Below are positions 2,930 through 28,256 of a stretch of 31,390 nt of DNA, piece after piece. This DNA comes from an uncultured cyanobacterium (GTDB lineage Bacteria > Cyanobacteriota > Cyanobacteriia > Leptolyngbyales > Leptolyngbyaceae): NCBI GenBank assembly GCA_963766075.1, contig CAVYAN010000069.1, positions 1 to 31,390 on the forward strand. Reading direction: 5' to 3'. A program made the translations under genes and the position numbers. The notes under the pieces are model-generated. The model did no database searches. It was given only the letters and a program-made list of their open reading frames with translations, and had not been told where the DNA came from. The stretch's first letter is position 1; each line of letters opens with the position of its first letter.

Positions 2930-2958
2930 TTGCGTGGCTCTGCGCCTTCTGGTACGCT
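2930..2958 (+). promoter_or_regulatory. Putative sigma70-type promoter of the small-ORF module
   Basis: TTGCGT (2930-2935), 17-nt spacer, TACGCT (2953-2958), with extended -10 TG at 2950-2951. The predicted start (~2965) lies just before the first hairpin. Confidence 0.5.
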
Positions 2959-2964
2959 CGGATG

Positions 2965-3180
2965 CTAAGGCACGGGTCGATTCAGGCCCGGTGCCCTTCC
3001 CAAAAACTAAAGCGCGATCGCAGAGTGTTTGCGGCACTTTGCGATCGCTAACCCCCACGCTGTGTACACCAGCACGGAGGCTTGTTTCATTTTACAAGCC
3101 GCCCTGTTTTGTACTCGCAAACGGGGCGGCTTTAGTTTTTGGGTTTCCTACCCATACCAATAAACCAGGAGACCCAAAAA
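2965..3180 (+). ncRNA. Putative structured cis-regulatory leader / attenuator RNA (family not recognised)
   Basis: Hairpins 2969-2995, 3014-3048 (14 bp), 3079-3100, 3096-3132 (14 bp followed by U tract) and 3136-3180 (14 bp covering AGGAG). Competing perfect 15-bp helix 2999-3013/3129-3143. Confidence 0.55.
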
Positions 3181-3391
3181 TGAACATTCCCATGCCCAGC
3201 GGCCTAATCGCCACTGCCCCGTCCGAAGCGTGCATGTAGCCCTGACCGGTAGCCGCGCCAGTGTTCAGGCGGCGATTCACTTGCTCCACGAGTTGAACTT
3301 TATCGCGGGCAGCGAGTGGAGCAAGCCCATTGCGCTGCAACAAACTAACACGGTCATTTGCGTGGCGACGCGCCAAATTCGGACGGAATAG
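3180..3391 (+). CDS. Small hypothetical protein (~70 aa) with an apparent 1-nt frameshift near 3230, or a 53-aa protein from GTG 3230
   Basis: SD AGGAG 3167-3171 and ATG 3180 give MNIPMPSGLIATAPSEA. The frame from 3230 gives VHVALTGSRASVQAAIHLLHELNFIAGSEWSKPIALQQTNTVICVATRQIRTE*. One extra G (GCG GTG) joins them. The pattern LxGS-x3-V-x3-I-x2-LH...EWS-x-P resembles, from memory, a cyanobacterial hypothetical family. Confidence 0.6.
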
Positions 3392-3403: not shown

Positions 3404-3439
3404 CAGATCCCTGGGGTTTTGCAAAACCCCAGGGATCTG
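3404..3439. repeat. Perfect 36-bp palindrome (terminator or dispersed repeat)
   Basis: cagatccctggggttttg|caaaaccccagggatctg, starting 13 nt after the small ORF stop. Confidence 0.75.
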
Positions 3440-3525: not shown

Positions 3526-5721
3526 ATGAGTGTCCTGCAAATTCTCAGCGATCCCAATGTGCAACAAATCGTCATGCCTCTGGCCCTGGGACTGCTTGGC
3601 ATTCTATCGTCATGGGCGGGGAATCAGTTGCCGCAGTTGCCGAAGGCTAACGGCTGGCGAGTGCTGAAACTGGCGGTGGAAGTGATGTTAGCCGCTGTCG
3701 CTCTCGCCAGTTTGCCCAAGGCCATCACAGCGATCGCGACCAAAAGCGATGACACCCTTCAACTTATCGGTTGGATTTATGTGATTGTTTTGCTGCTGTT
3801 GCTCTGTGCGATCGCGGGGGATGGCTGGCAGTTATGGCACAAGCGATCGCCTGCCCAAACCATTGCCGATGAAAAAGCCACGCGCCGTCGCGATCTGCGG
3901 CAGGCTTTGATGGATGAGGTGCGGCACAAATGGATTCGTGGCGTGCTGGAAAAGGAAAACTCGTTGTATCACCGATCGCGGATTGAGCTGGGGTTGCAAG
4001 CCTGTCCGGATTTGGTGCGGCATTTGGAATCTCGGCAGCAGCAGCACTGGCGATCGCTGCCCGTGGGCACGCGAATTTTTGACGAGTTTGTCAACCTGGG
4101 GGAAGGGGGCACGCTGCTGATTGTGGGGGAGCCGGGGGGCGGCAAAACGACGCTGCTGCTGGAACTGGCGCGGGATTTGTTAGCGGCGACGGCGGCGACG
4201 GATCCGGAGCAACCCGTGCCCGTGGTGCTGAACCTGTCCTCCTGGGACAAGGTGCAGAAAGATCGCCAACCGATCTCCACTTTGCAGGATTGGCTGATTG
4301 CAGAGCTCTATGGCAAGTACAGCGTGCGGCGGGAAGTGGGTGCGGCGTTGCTGCAAGAGGAAAAGCTGGTGCTGCTGCTGGATGGTCTGGATGAGGTCCT
4401 CGCGGAGCGGCGAGAGGACTGTGTGGCGGCCATTAACCAGTTCCAGCGGAATCATGGGGCCATCGAAATCGTCGTCTGTTGCCGGATTGCGGACTACGAA
4501 GCGCTGACCACGGGGCTAGACCAGTTTCGGTCGGCGATTTATATTCGGCCCTTGGATTTGGCGCGGGTGGAGGACTATTTGCAGCAGGCGGGACCAGCGT
4601 TGGCGGGCTTTCGGCAAACGCTGCGCCGGGATGCCGACTTGCAAAAGCTGGTGGGCCAACCGCTGTTTTTGGCCATTGCCACCCTGGCCTACAAGGATCA
4701 CGCCGCCGCTGAGTTGGTGAATTTGTCGGAGGCGGCGCGGATGCAGATCTTGTTTGATCGCTACATCCAGCAGATGTTTGTCCAGCGCCCGCTGCCGCCG
4801 AGGGAACAACTCCAGATGCGGCGCTGGCTCTGCCAGGTGGCCCAGCAAATGGGCAGCGAAAAAGAATTCCTGATCGAACGGATGCAGCCCAGGGATTGGT
4901 TGCGGCGATCGGGCCATCAATGGCAATATCGGCTGATTTTGGGTCTGATTTTCGGTCTGATTCTGGGTCTGATGTGGGGGCTGATTTTTGGTCTGATGTG
5001 GGGTCTGATGTGGGGTCTGATGTGGGGTCTGGACTCGATTGATTTGGTCGAAGCGCTTCAAATTTCGATGCAGATCGGGGCGAGACGAAAAATTTTTAGG
5101 CAGATAAAACAAAATTTGATTTTGGGTCTGATGTGGGGGCTGATTTTGGGTCTGATGTGGGGCCTAATTTGGGGTTTGATTAGGGGTCTAATTTGGTTTC
5201 TGATTAGGGGTCTAATTTGGTTTCTGATTAGGAGTCTGATTAGGAGTCTGATTTTCGGTCTGATTTTTGGTCTGATTTTTGGTCTGATTTTCGGTTTGAT
5301 TAGGGGGCTGATAGGGGGTCTGAAGGCGGATATTCAGACTCGGACTGCGCCCAATCAGGGAATCTTGAATTCCCGCAATAACACGCTGCTGCTGAGCGGA
5401 GTGGCGCTGGGTTTAACCCCACTTTTATACCCAGCTCTGGCCTATGGGCTACCCTGGGTTGTCGATCAAGCGATGGTCGATTTTGTCATTCCTGCCACTC
5501 TTCCTGCACCCTTCCTGTTTGCCTTCTTGTTGGGCGGCGGCCAAGCCTGCATCCAGCACTTCGCCCTGCGCTTAGTCCTTTACGGCAACCACCTCATCCC
5601 CTGGAACTTTGTTCGCTTTTTCCAGCAGGCCGAAGACCGCCTGTTCATCCAGCGCACCGGCGGCAGCTACATTTTCATCCACCGCACCCTCCAAGAACAC
5701 TTCGCCACCCGGCGCGATTAG
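3526..5721 (+). CDS. NACHT-domain (STAND) NTPase with N-terminal TM helices and C-terminal GLIx-repeat membrane region
   Basis: Walker A GEPGGGKT, Walker B LLLDGLDEV, PVVLNLSSW, and the C-terminal IQHFALR...LFIQRTGGSYIFIHRTLQEHFA typical of cyanobacterial NACHT proteins. Confidence 0.9.
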   Translation: MSVLQILSDPNVQQIVMPLALGLLGILSSWAGNQLPQLPKANGWRVLKLAVEVMLAAVALASLPKAITAIATKSDDTLQLIGWIYVIVLLLLLCAIAGDGWQLWHKRSPAQTIADEKATRRRDLRQALMDEVRHKWIRGVLEKENSLYHRSRIELGLQACPDLVRHLESRQQQHWRSLPVGTRIFDEFVNLGEGGTLLIVGEPGGGKTTLLLELARDLLAATAATDPEQPVPVVLNLSSWDKVQKDRQPISTLQDWLIAELYGKYSVRREVGAALLQEEKLVLLLDGLDEVLAERREDCVAAINQFQRNHGAIEIVVCCRIADYEALTTGLDQFRSAIYIRPLDLARVEDYLQQAGPALAGFRQTLRRDADLQKLVGQPLFLAIATLAYKDHAAAELVNLSEAARMQILFDRYIQQMFVQRPLPPREQLQMRRWLCQVAQQMGSEKEFLIERMQPRDWLRRSGHQWQYRLILGLIFGLILGLMWGLIFGLMWGLMWGLMWGLDSIDLVEALQISMQIGARRKIFRQIKQNLILGLMWGLILGLMWGLIWGLIRGLIWFLIRGLIWFLIRSLIRSLIFGLIFGLIFGLIFGLIRGLIGGLKADIQTRTAPNQGILNSRNNTLLLSGVALGLTPLLYPALAYGLPWVVDQAMVDFVIPATLPAPFLFAFLLGGGQACIQHFALRLVLYGNHLIPWNFVRFFQQAEDRLFIQRTGGSYIFIHRTLQEHFATRRD
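4933..5322 (+). repeat. Two in-frame 12-nt tandem repeat tracts (GLIF/GLMW/GLIR) in the NACHT gene
   Basis: Units such as ggtctgattttc and ggtctgatgtgg at ~4933-5031 and ~5116-5322. Confidence 0.9.
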
Positions 5722-6827: not shown

Positions 6828-7107
6828 ATCCTGAATCTTGGGTGATGCGTGCAGTGGCCGGGGGCCGCACGCCGGGGGCCGCAGGAGGCTGCGTTTTCTG
6901 ATGCATTTTCTGAGTATATCGCTCCTAAAGTGATGCGGAGGCGCGTTTCGAGTGCCATTCTGATTCGGATGCGGCCCGAATTTCTGATACCCGCCTGATT
7001 TCCCGTGCCCCATTGAAAACGTTTGCCCCTATTCTGGAGAATAACGTTTGGAGAATACCGTTCATCCCTCGTGTCGTCTGCCCTTTAGAAAAGCCGGATC
7101 CCCCGTT

Positions 7108-8586
7108 ATGGACAATCGTTCACCCAACCCAGAAGTGCCAAATCCAGAAGTGTCAAATCCAGAAGGGCTAAACCCAGCCAGTACCCCGCTGCCCCGCCTC
7201 TCCCTGCTGACGATGGGGCAACTGGGGCTATTCCAAATGGGCCTGGGCATGATGTCTGTGCTGCTGCTCGGCGTCTTGAACCGGGTCATGATTAAAGAGC
7301 TCGCGATTCCCGCGACGATCGCGGCGGGGGCGATCGCCGTCCACCAGTTCATGGCCCCGGCCCGCCTGTGGTTTGGGCAACTGTCTGATGCCCAGCGCCT
7401 TTGGGGATACCACCGCACGGGCTATGTGTGGATTGGGTCGGCACTGTTTGCGATCGCGGCCTTCCTCGCCGTCCAAGTCATGTGGCAACTGGGCGACAGT
7501 CTGCAAGCCGTGGGCTGGGCGTTGCCCACGCAACTCTGGGCGTTGTTATTGGGTCTGGTGTTTGCCCTGTATGGCTTGGCCCTTAGTTCTGGGTCTACGC
7601 CGTTTGCCGCGCTGCTGGTGGATGTATCCGACGAAGACCAACGTTCCAAGCTGGTGGGCATTGTCTGGTCCATGCTGATGGTGGGTATTGTGATTGGGGC
7701 CATCATTAGTTCAAAACTGCTGCCGGGGGCGGTGAATTGCTACGAGCTGGGGAAAGCCGACCTCACCACCCTGCGCGCAGGCATGAACCGACTGTTTGCG
7801 GTGGTGCCAGGAATCGTGTTTGGGCTGACACTGCTGGCCACCTGGGGCGTTGAGAAAAAGTATTCTCGCTTTGGGCAGCGATCATAACGGTGGAGCGAGA
7901 AGATCAAGTCACCTTTGGGCGGGCCTTTCGCATCCTCACGGCCTCGCCCCAGACGGGGCTGTTCTTCAGCTTCCTGCTGTTTATGACGATTAGCTTGTTT
8001 ATCCAGGATCCAGTGCTGGAGTCCTACGGCGGCCAGGTGTTTGGCATGTGCGTGGGCGATACGACAAAGCTGAATGCGTTTTGGGGCACGGGCACGCTGA
8101 TCGGCATTTCCGCAGCGGGCTTCGTGGTAGTGCCCAAATTGGGCAAGGAACGGACGGCCAAGCTGGGCTGCATTGGGGTGGCCCTCTGTGCCGGATTGTT
8201 GATTTTGGCGGGCGTTGCTGCCAACCAAACGCTATTCAAGAGCGCGGTGTTGCTGTTTGGTTTGGCGTCGGGCATCACGACGACGGGGGCGTTGAACCTG
8301 ATGCTGGATCTAACGGTGGCGGAAACAGCGGGGACGTTTATTGGGGCCTGGGGACTGGCCCAAGCCATGGCGCGGGGGTTTGCGACGGTGCTGGGCGGCT
8401 CGTTGCTGGATCTGGGCAAAGGGCTGTTTGGCAACAATGTGTTGGGGGCCTATGGTCTTGTGTTTGGGATACAGGCGATAGGCATGTTGGGGGCGATCGC
8501 CCTACTCAGCCGCTTGGATCTGAAGGAGTTTCGGACAACCGCCCAAAGGTGCGATCGCCACCGTTTTCCAAAGCGATCTGGACTAA
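7108..8586 (+). CDS. BCD (PucC-like) family MFS transporter with two apparent frameshifts (~7884 and ~8547)
   Basis: LGLFQMGLGMM, LNRVMIKEL, FGQLSD, GYHRTGY, QDPVLESYGG, ETAGTFIGAWGLAQA. Correcting both indels gives ~492 aa ending AQGAIATVFQSDLD* at TAA 8584-8586. Confidence 0.85.
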
Positions 8587-8628
8587 GGCAATTTCCCAGA
8601 AATAATACACCTACTGGGTAATAGATCC

Positions 8629-20310: not shown

Positions 20311-22186
<1,876 letters not shown>

Positions 22187-26730: not shown

Positions 26731-28256
26731 ATGTTGTCTGAAATTTCTCCGTCCGCAAGGGCAATCGCTGAAACGGACTTTTCCCAAGCTGTCCCTCAGG
26801 TGGGTGAGACGGTTGATAGTGAGGCGGCTAGAGCCTCGCTCTGTCCGAGTGTCTTACACCCCACTCCGGCTCCCGATGGTGTGCTGTCGCGACTCCGTGT
26901 GGTGGGAGGGCTGTTGACGGCGGTGCAGGCAGAAGCGATCGCTCAATTCGCCGATCGTTTCAGTCAAGGCCGCATCCAAATTACCAACCGAGCTAATATC
27001 CAAATCCGGGGTCAGCAAGCCCTGCCCCCCGAGGCACGGGCCGTCTTGCAGTCCCTCGGGTTAGCCTCTCGCACCGCCGAAGTCGATCATCTCCGCAATA
27101 TCATGCTGAGCCCAACAGCGGGGATTGATGTCCAGAGTCTTTGGGATCCGCGCCCCGTGGCCCATCAATGGGAAGCCTATTTAGCAGATCATCCGGAACT
27201 GGCAATTCTCTCAGCCAAATTTAGTATTGGTTTCGACGGTGGAGAAGCAGCCACCATCAGCGATCGCCCCAATGATATCAGCCTAATCGCCACAATGGCA
27301 GAGGACAGGCTAAATTTGCGCCTGCGGTTGAGTTTGGGCGATCGCGGGCGGCTCCCCAGGATGTCGGGGTTCAACTGGCCCCAGATCAAGTCTTGCCTGC
27401 CCTTGCGGCCTTTGCTCAGGTTTACCACGACTATACGCAGCGGCAAAATGCGCCGCGTTCTCCCCGATTGCGAGAACTGCTGCGGGACTGGGGGGTGGAG
27501 GCCGTATTGCACGCTGTTGCCCAACAGTTGCCGGTGCCGTGGCGGCGCTGTCCGATCCAGTCGCCCCCTCCCTCCCTCCCAATCCACGCGCATTTGGGTC
27601 ACCATCCCCAGCAGCAAACTGGACTATCCTACTGGGGCGTGGCCTTGCCCCTGGGGCAGGTTACCAGCAAGCAACTGCGGGGAATTGTCCACCTGGCGGT
27701 GCACCATGGCAGTGGCCATATCCGATTGACCCCATGGCAAAATCTGCTGATTCCCGATGTCCCCCATGACCAAAGTACTCCGGTGAGCGAGGGTATAGGC
27801 CGTTTAGGCTTATCCACGCGGGCCGACCATCCCTGGGGAGCGATCGTGGCGTGTTCTGGCAGTACAGGATGCTATGCCTCGGCCACGGATACCCAGGCGG
27901 ATGCGATGGCATTGGCTCGGTGCCTGGAGACACGATACCCAGCCCCCGCTGATGAAGCAGGCAGGCAGACAGAGGACATGGGCAAAGAATTCACACGCGC
28001 CCTACCCATGACTTCCTCAGGCTCGCCCCATCGCTTCATTACTATTCATGTCACGGGTTGTGAAAAATCCTGTGCCCAGCACCACCCTGCCGACATCACC
28101 CTTGTGGGGATAAAGCTGGAAGAAGGCTCGGGGTACCGCGTATATGGGGGCGATCGCCCCACGCCCTTTGGTCAAATCCTCCACCCTTTCTGTCCAAGTG
28201 GCCAAATTCCTGACTCTATAGAGTCTTGGCTAGCGCACTGGAGGCAGATTGAGTAA
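26731..28256 (+). CDS. cobG: Precorrin-3B synthase with an apparent frameshift (one base missing) at ~27346-27348
   Basis: CPS...DGVLSRLRV.GG, ITNRANIQIRG, RNIMLSPTAG, LSAKFS, IRLTPWQN, ACSGSTGC, HVTGCEKSC. One added G yields ~508 aa. Lies upstream of cobH/cobI. Confidence 0.88.

Follow-up and report, generated by a model that had tools for sequence, protein, structure and literature searches.

Positions 2930-3180 of the window, by which we mean the whole 31,390-nt stretch of cyanobacterial DNA analysed here, raise a two-part question: is the leader encoded there an RNA switch, and if so, what throws it? The original prediction described a promoter and an almost wholly helical leader that would switch transcription and translation of a small gene between two exclusive states. 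The locus is composed of the following elements.

2930-2958, plus strand: sense promoter, with the -35 box TTGCGT (2930-2935), a 17-nt spacer and the -10 box TACGCT (2953-2958).
2969-2995, plus strand: P1, the predicted 5' hairpin of the mRNA; homologues have a hairpin of unrelated sequence in the same place.
2999-3013, plus strand: alpha, the putative anti-anti-SD or antiterminator arm, whose complement is the U-rich 3' tail of a predicted antisense RNA.
3014-3048, unstranded: P2, or antisense stem-loop 2, with a hypervariable loop at 3028-3034.
3050-3082, unstranded: P3, or antisense stem-loop 1, with a hypervariable loop at 3063-3069.
3079-3100, plus strand: P4 hairpin (arms 3079-3085/3094-3100), competing with the 5' arm of T.
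3096-3140, plus strand: T, a terminator-like hairpin (stem 3096-3109/3119-3132) with a U-rich tail.
3129-3149, plus strand: alpha-prime (3129-3143), overlapping the anti-SD arm (3136-3149), from sequence and duplex test.
3167-3182, plus strand: SD (AGGAG) and start codon ATG, which the anti-SD arm sequesters (3136-3149/3167-3180).
3180-3391, plus strand: small gene of ~70 aa with a frame shift near 3226, a beta-alpha-beta model and a conserved W-S motif.
3404-3439, unstranded: perfect palindrome of 36 nt following the stop codon; it is a dispersed repeat in its own right.

Re-checking on the sequence confirmed the position of every helix originally described, and 2999-3013 is indeed the perfect 15-nt reverse complement of 3129-3143. 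The window has three perfect 15-nt inverted repeats spaced by 20-300 nt; apart from this one, they are simple palindromes. The coordinates of the promoter are exact as well, and a TG at 2950-2951 gives it an extended -10. A consensus promoter scan called 0 sites at the sense promoter of the window leader. We accept the promoter despite the scanner because the motif TTG-N16-18-TAnnnT recurs with its spacing at the same position in homologues (the regular expression finds no match at 2/56 loci); the support is thus the homologue motif and not the consensus scan. The mRNA would start at about 2965. The fold of 2964-3200 reaches -104.2 kcal/mol with a z of -8.98, and 0/200 shuffles were as good. 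This places the helices beyond chance, and they are conserved. Rfam gave no match to the window leader at gathering score and none meaningful at E<=10, and the leaders of 16 homologous loci had no Rfam match, in agreement with the view that this is not a known riboswitch family.

The exclusivity of the two states is less complete than proposed. The competing helices are real and the forced folds of the window copy are nearly equal (ON -99.2, OFF -98.9 kcal/mol), but the minimum free energy structure (-103.4 kcal/mol) is a hybrid in which the inner long-range helix coexists with a 10-bp SD helix and the SD is paired. In the absence of antisense RNA, predicted SD pairing in the window copy is at least 0.99 at equilibrium, so that any ON state must be kinetic. 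Folds of the growing transcript of this copy complete the long-range helix before the SD is transcribed.

RNAalifold on a MAFFT alignment of homologues recovered only P3 and T because the alignment register shifts, and covariation was therefore tested with duplexes of cognate and non-cognate arms. Among 19 lineage representatives, which are related to each other and not independent, cognate arms pair better (permutation p<1e-4): -23.6 vs -19.5 kcal/mol for the long-range helix at equal window choice, -15.5 vs -12.4 kcal/mol for the anti-SD:SD helix and -13.3 vs -10.9 kcal/mol for P4 (3079-3100). In most rows, the cognate arms do not take the first rank. The perfect 15-mer pairing is peculiar to the window copy, and its paralogues carry interrupted versions. 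The anticipated covariation of the competing helices in homologues is thus found, and the sequence comparison supports a conserved two-state leader that would gate the SD.

The original prediction treated the locus as single. The leader is real, but it is one of 18 dispersed copies in the source genome, each made of promoter, ~220-nt leader and a gene of ~60-100 aa, which stand alone between housekeeping and accessory genes; the multicopy family had been missed. For genome searches, covariance model R1 was built on the minus strand of the leader. It matched in 10/151 phylum genomes and 23/61 order genomes; G206 has 42 matches, and the three relatives G164, G169 and G179 have at least 64 each. 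Matches occurred in 0/17 genomes of family f7, though 5 of these hold the small protein, and in 0/50 of family f22. Of 63 loci inspected for the gene after the leader, 7 end at a contig edge; in 54/56 readable loci the gene belongs to the same small-protein family, judged by eye from its motif (one is broken). L158 (1802-2392) and L159, from two family f2 genomes, have the leader in front of an unrelated protein of ~197 aa with no Pfam match.

Several observations concern individual copies. Short tandem arrays of ~21 nt lie just upstream of the promoter in copies C41, C90, C21, C31, C8 and C65 of G000 and in L076, and in C41 an integrase gene adjoins them. In L268 (G000:C109:5594-5701), the RBS and the first ~35 codons are fused in frame to an MgsA/RarA ATPase gene, as a remnant or a chimera. 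In L087 (1089-1138), a match to NsiR1 (RF02399) lies ~350 nt from the gene and is unrelated to the leader.

The small gene behind the leader is present, but it differs from the 19-aa ORF that the start codon suggests. The frame of the ATG at 3180 gives a 19-aa product (ORF 3180-3239), and a core at 3230-3391, in another frame, matches many loci of the same genome. P0002, an intact 70-aa orthologue, is 87% identical over the 53-aa core, and its N-terminus resembles the 19-aa product. Because of the core matches and because P0002 spans both parts, we assign the gene to 3180-3391 with a frame change near 3226. Four of the 18 own copies, the window's included, have frameshifted ORFs, which would fit a dispersed repeat of decaying, non-functional copies with the window copy in particular dead. 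This explanation is very improbable: 14/18 copies are intact, the element is conserved across the family and the ORF is under purifying selection, with paralogue groups differing by 0.02-0.07 at codon positions 1+2 and by 0.12-0.22 at position 3 (third positions change 1.6- to 11-fold faster than the other two). In addition, assembly indel errors appear even in rpoC1, so that some breaks may be artefacts. The rpoC1 (20311-22186), PucC-family (7048-8621) and CobG-like (26731-28256) genes of the window are each split across frames, which points to such errors; with an assumed rate of one error per 5-12 kb, four breaks would be improbable (P 0.012-0.0005). The frameshift near 3226 may be genuine or come from the assembly. 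The copy in the window is possibly a ghost, and decay may hold for this copy, not for the family.

The protein family occurs in 16/151 phylum-sampled and 43/61 order-sampled genomes, and its named relatives are cyanobacterial hypothetical proteins. Searches of Pfam, NCBIfam, PHROGs, PADLOC, PDB sequences and the ESM Atlas gave nothing usable. The structure model is strand-helix-strand (mean pLDDT 83.6). Fold searches returned a best Z of 4.3 and nothing at E<=0.001, a generic half-ferredoxin-like likeness only. No transmembrane helix is apparent, as a KD19 of 1.6 is reached by 3/98 family members. In the libraries searched, the protein resembles no toxin family in sequence or fold. In L016, L019, L021 and L032 it is fused to an extra N-terminal domain of ~50 aa that belongs to no known family. 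Downstream in the window, the palindrome at 3404-3439 may end the transcript; further occurrences of it lie in other parts of the genome, one of them behind the C72 copy, and a second perfect palindromic repeat lies at 502-548. A NACHT NTPase gene with Gly/Leu-rich hydrophobic repeats (3526-5721) directly follows the module. Further along, a cobalamin riboswitch (RF00174, 26473-26685) precedes cobalamin synthesis genes.

A candidate for the trigger lies on the opposite strand.

2996-3083, minus strand: predicted cis-antisense RNA of ~75-90 nt with two stem-loops and a U-rich tail, both ends putative.
3089-3094, minus strand: antisense -10 box TAAAAT, from comparison across leaders.

Read from 3083 to 2996, the minus strand folds into the two stem-loops and the U-rich tail with a z of -3.89. 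In 64/64 parsed leaders (a set that excludes L079 and L116, where the sense-promoter match is absent), a minus-strand TAnnAT box lies at most 30 nt upstream of T, in seven hexamer variants, and 45/64 add a TG extension; the copies of the source genome have neither the extension nor a clear -35. TGn-TAnnnT occurs in 46/46 later loci (excluding L229, L243 and L244) against a shuffled rate of 0.23 for the bare -10, a count that is partly circular, as these loci were found with a model containing the -10 and the hairpins. By comparison, convergent sense and antisense promoters are shared across leaders. For the P2-P3 segment, the minus strand gives the better fold in 64/64 leaders (median -11.9 kcal/mol), and the segment from T to AUG favours the plus strand in 53/64. 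Corrected for composition by shuffling, z is lower on the minus strand in 19/19 representatives. Stem-loop 1 carries 12 double-sided changes, with 0/500 shuffles as high; the control takes no account of relatedness. In 18/19 representatives, the stems are completed by G-U pairs on the minus strand only (3-8 vs 0-2). The exception is the window copy, which has the weakest strand asymmetry (-40.0 vs -34.7; 4 vs 5 G-U pairs); its P3 stem has 13 bp on the minus and 6 bp on the plus strand. For homologue L033, 24 public RNA runs are listed, all as contigs, with shares of at most 0.18. Contigs from four runs of 3 studies cover the leader, and as strand, ends and level are unreadable, we do not count them as support.

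The existence of the predicted antisense RNA is highly probable, and the leader's likely trigger is this RNA of its own rather than a ligand. The original switch logic stands as far as the two-state leader is concerned, but it named no trigger and overlooked the cis-antisense RNA. A switch acting in cis only, as the original prediction implied, be it a riboswitch, a thermometer or a protein-binding attenuator, would need no antisense RNA and would agree with the near-equal ON and OFF energies and the covarying helices. We regard it as very unlikely, given that the loops are the least conserved part, unlike an aptamer, that G-U pairs complete the stems only on the minus strand, that the sole single-stranded motif without variation can be read as a -10 box of the minus strand and that Rfam has no match. 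A riboswitch with a conserved aptamer was rejected on the hypervariable loops and the missing Rfam match.

All loop pairs are distinct among the 18 own copies. In 25 close paralogue pairs, the loops differ at 0.45 and 0.50 of sites, compared to 0.11 of third codon positions and 0.05 of the rest of the leader. Across three groups (25, 3 and 2 pairs), the loops differ by 0.45-0.57, third positions by 0.11-0.20 and the other leader positions by 0.03-0.06; in three further groups, the loops differ by 0.29-0.71 and third positions by 0.12-0.22. Divergence in the two loops thus far outpaces that at third codon positions, which is the behaviour of lock-and-key kissing loops. A YUNR U-turn motif occurs at the second antisense loop in 37/64 leaders vs 28% of random 8-mers, a comparison between non-independent copies on which we do not rely. 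In genus g4, the second loops of L018 and L033 are exact reverse complements of those of L038, L061 and L065, which suggests loop inversion as a source of new specificities.

How would such an RNA act on an SD that it does not reach? In the mechanism we propose, the mRNA starts near 2965 and alpha captures alpha-prime before the SD appears, which would leave a brief SD-free window. The antisense RNA, running from 3083 to ~2996, would meet both mRNA loops by kissing and then zip into a duplex of ~75-90 bp, removing alpha and the 5' arm of P4. With alpha removed, the full-length anti-SD:SD helix would form, and in some lineages T would terminate transcription. By analogy, decay of the duplex by RNase III is likely; both this step and the entry by kissing loops are borrowed from the account of aapA1/IsoA1 (PMC5416894, as far as it describes them). 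Owing to loop divergence, each copy would answer only to its own antisense RNA, a pattern expected of addiction modules.

The folding calculations are consistent with this relay. The footprint of the predicted RNA takes in both loops, all or part of alpha and, at the RNA's own 5' end, the 5' arm of P4. When the antisense footprint is masked, the cost of opening the RBS rises by more than 1 kcal/mol in 41/55 leaders (median +5.0), and in the window copy from 5.6 to 12.0 (+6.4 kcal/mol); this test is partly true by construction. The 14/55 leaders without tightening of the RBS are 13 of genus g4 and L127. In the full-length mRNA, the SD is sequestered in silico by the covarying anti-SD:SD helix, which is weak in g4. 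Masking P1 alone shifts the opening cost by less than 0.7 in 17/19. In 18/55 leaders, the free nascent RNA disfavours the T stem, which forms anyway in the other 37 and, once the footprint is masked, in 55/55; its U-tract is interrupted in many lineages. Of the coupled transcriptional and translational switch first proposed, the conserved gating of the SD stands, but the terminator arm is partial, T being disfavoured in the free RNA of only those 18 leaders. Translational control would be the common output and termination a lineage-dependent addition.

What is kept off in this way? We consider it fairly probable that the locus is a stand-alone multicopy module in which a cis-antisense RNA keeps a small, probably harmful protein off, much like a toxin-antitoxin system of type I. 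Toxicity of the putative effector is the weakest step, with an even chance of being right. In loci without the leader, the gene faces a divergent HTH (29) or RHH (1) gene in 30/77 cases, and from this frequent pairing with a repressor gene we take the small gene to be kept tightly off. Apart from these, L015, L090, L092-L099, L102, L103, L133 and L138 have neither leader nor HTH gene and share a ACCGTGTAAATT-like promoter motif. A quick tree (109 rows, 66 columns; near-duplicates left out, P0002 labelled by orthology, root placement provisional) requires 7 changes of the leader label, of which strong branches force at least 3, and the clade of the window (support 99) holds both leader and leaderless kinds. 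Decayed loci show a related pattern. In L170, the antisense promoter and the ORF start are deleted together; L175 is broken at the antisense promoter with the ORF absent after the break; and L161 keeps the antisense unit with the ORF absent. No intact gene with a lost antisense box was seen among the parsed leaders. The decayed loci and the repressor layout agree with a product that is harmful and with selection of the addiction type for new loops, and also with a regulator or a spreading factor.

Under this other explanation, the antisense switch is the same and the protein is no toxin but an antirepressor-like regulator or a factor that spreads the cassette, the antisense RNA serving as copy-number or immunity control as in plasmid replicons. 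Its divergent HTH or RHH gene recalls a phage immunity region, the matches expand to 18, 42 and at least 64 per genome, the gene is carried by 13 plasmid records, several own copies have integrase, methylase/HNH, IS or RT genes as neighbours, and in L158 and L159 the leader precedes a different gene. Against it, the 18 own copies have no common ends and no target duplication by eye, no operon or replication gene follows the small gene, and phage genomes, viral contigs and PHROGs hold no match to it. On balance, we judge it unlikely. The toxin-like reading can be carried further, and here we are tentative: the module may be a new toxin-antitoxin family of type I in filamentous-type cyanobacteria, whose toxin is soluble, whose antisense RNA acts at a distance through a leader refolding relay, which has been amplified to at least 64 copies per genome through diversification of the two kissing loops, and whose RNA control can be swapped for a divergent HTH or RHH repressor.

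The RNA and protein families are absent from the libraries searched, and the module is real, conserved and richer than first read. No description of the leader and gene was found in the literature, outside subscription papers and supplementary TSS tables, which could hold it. If the toxin-antitoxin reading is true, the copy number would be unusual, and nature would provide dozens of orthogonal antisense/leader pairs as a library, its members being distinguished by two 7-nt loops only. How antisense specificity evolves would become directly testable, and orthogonal RNA switches would be ready for cyanobacterial engineering. One protein family moving between RNA and protein repressors, as the tree hints, bears on the interconversion of toxin-antitoxin types.

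Two phage systems and hok/sok were named as analogues in the original prediction. The P1 C4 and P4 CI RNAs come from the same strand, and their loops find their pairing partners at other sites of the leader. The present leader also places variable-loop hairpins before a small gene, but same-strand loop targets were found in 0/18 copies for either loop within -250/+450 nt, and the Rfam C4 family is absent, so this analogy is dropped. The comparison with hok/sok, made for its mRNA refolding, came close. Membrane-peptide type I toxins (Hok, Ldr, Fst, AapA, TisB, MsoT1) are small and hydrophobic and have a transmembrane helix. The present protein was rejected as a member of this class on the absence of such a helix, the beta-alpha-beta model and the lack of a Pfam or NCBIfam match.

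Two cyanobacterial systems are the nearest by host. MsoT1/MsoA1 of Microcystis is likewise a candidate type I system, called the first of the phylum in its paper (PMC12390103). In the portion of that paper cited here, MsoT1 has 63 aa and two predicted membrane helices, and the screen discarded proteins without such helices; it could not find the present family because this protein has none. To the sole type I candidate that we found reported for cyanobacteria, a membrane peptide, the present family would add a soluble effector. The ssr7036/asRNA1 pair of pSYSA in Synechocystis also combines a small gene with a stem-loop cis-antisense RNA (PMC9978351). Unlike the present module, asRNA1 (~150 nt) is described in the cited part as overlapping the coding sequence and controlling plasmid replication from a single locus.

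By mechanism, the closest relatives are the antisense attenuators and aapA/IsoA. As in pT181, pIP501, pAMbeta1, repABC and Shigella RnaG/icsA, the antisense RNA would act on the nascent leader and remove the antiterminator arm, and in pT181-type attenuation a terminator or SD-blocking hairpin then forms, according to the passages cited (PMC2879508). Those systems, as described there, control replication initiators or one virulence gene, whereas the present one is a chromosomal cassette in tens of copies. Rfam ctRNA and plasmid antisense families gave no match to the leader, and replication-initiator control of the pT181/pIP501 kind was rejected since the downstream gene encodes the small protein in 54/56 readable loci. 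With aapA/IsoA of Helicobacter pylori, as far as the accounts cited go (PMC5416894, PMC6733600), the module would share an antisense RNA of ~80 nt opposite the 5' UTR with two stem-loops and kissing loops, loops that give copy specificity, anti-SD arms that hold the SD, and several chromosomal and ghost copies. The trait of a two-loop antisense RNA with copy-specific loops is found here in predicted structure and loop divergence. Searches at the level of Rfam, Pfam and NCBIfam families gave no sign of homology to AapA/IsoA. AapA is a 30-aa peptide and the protein here a soluble one of ~70 aa modelled as beta-alpha-beta. According to the cited accounts, the RBS of aapA is covered by the duplex itself, and a long-distance 5'-3' fold must undergo 3' processing for activation. 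In the present module, ~85 nt separate the antisense footprint from the SD, a refolding relay is proposed and the leader holds a terminator-like hairpin. We conclude that the module belongs to none of these systems but, as predicted from its sequence, works like aapA/IsoA and antisense attenuation.
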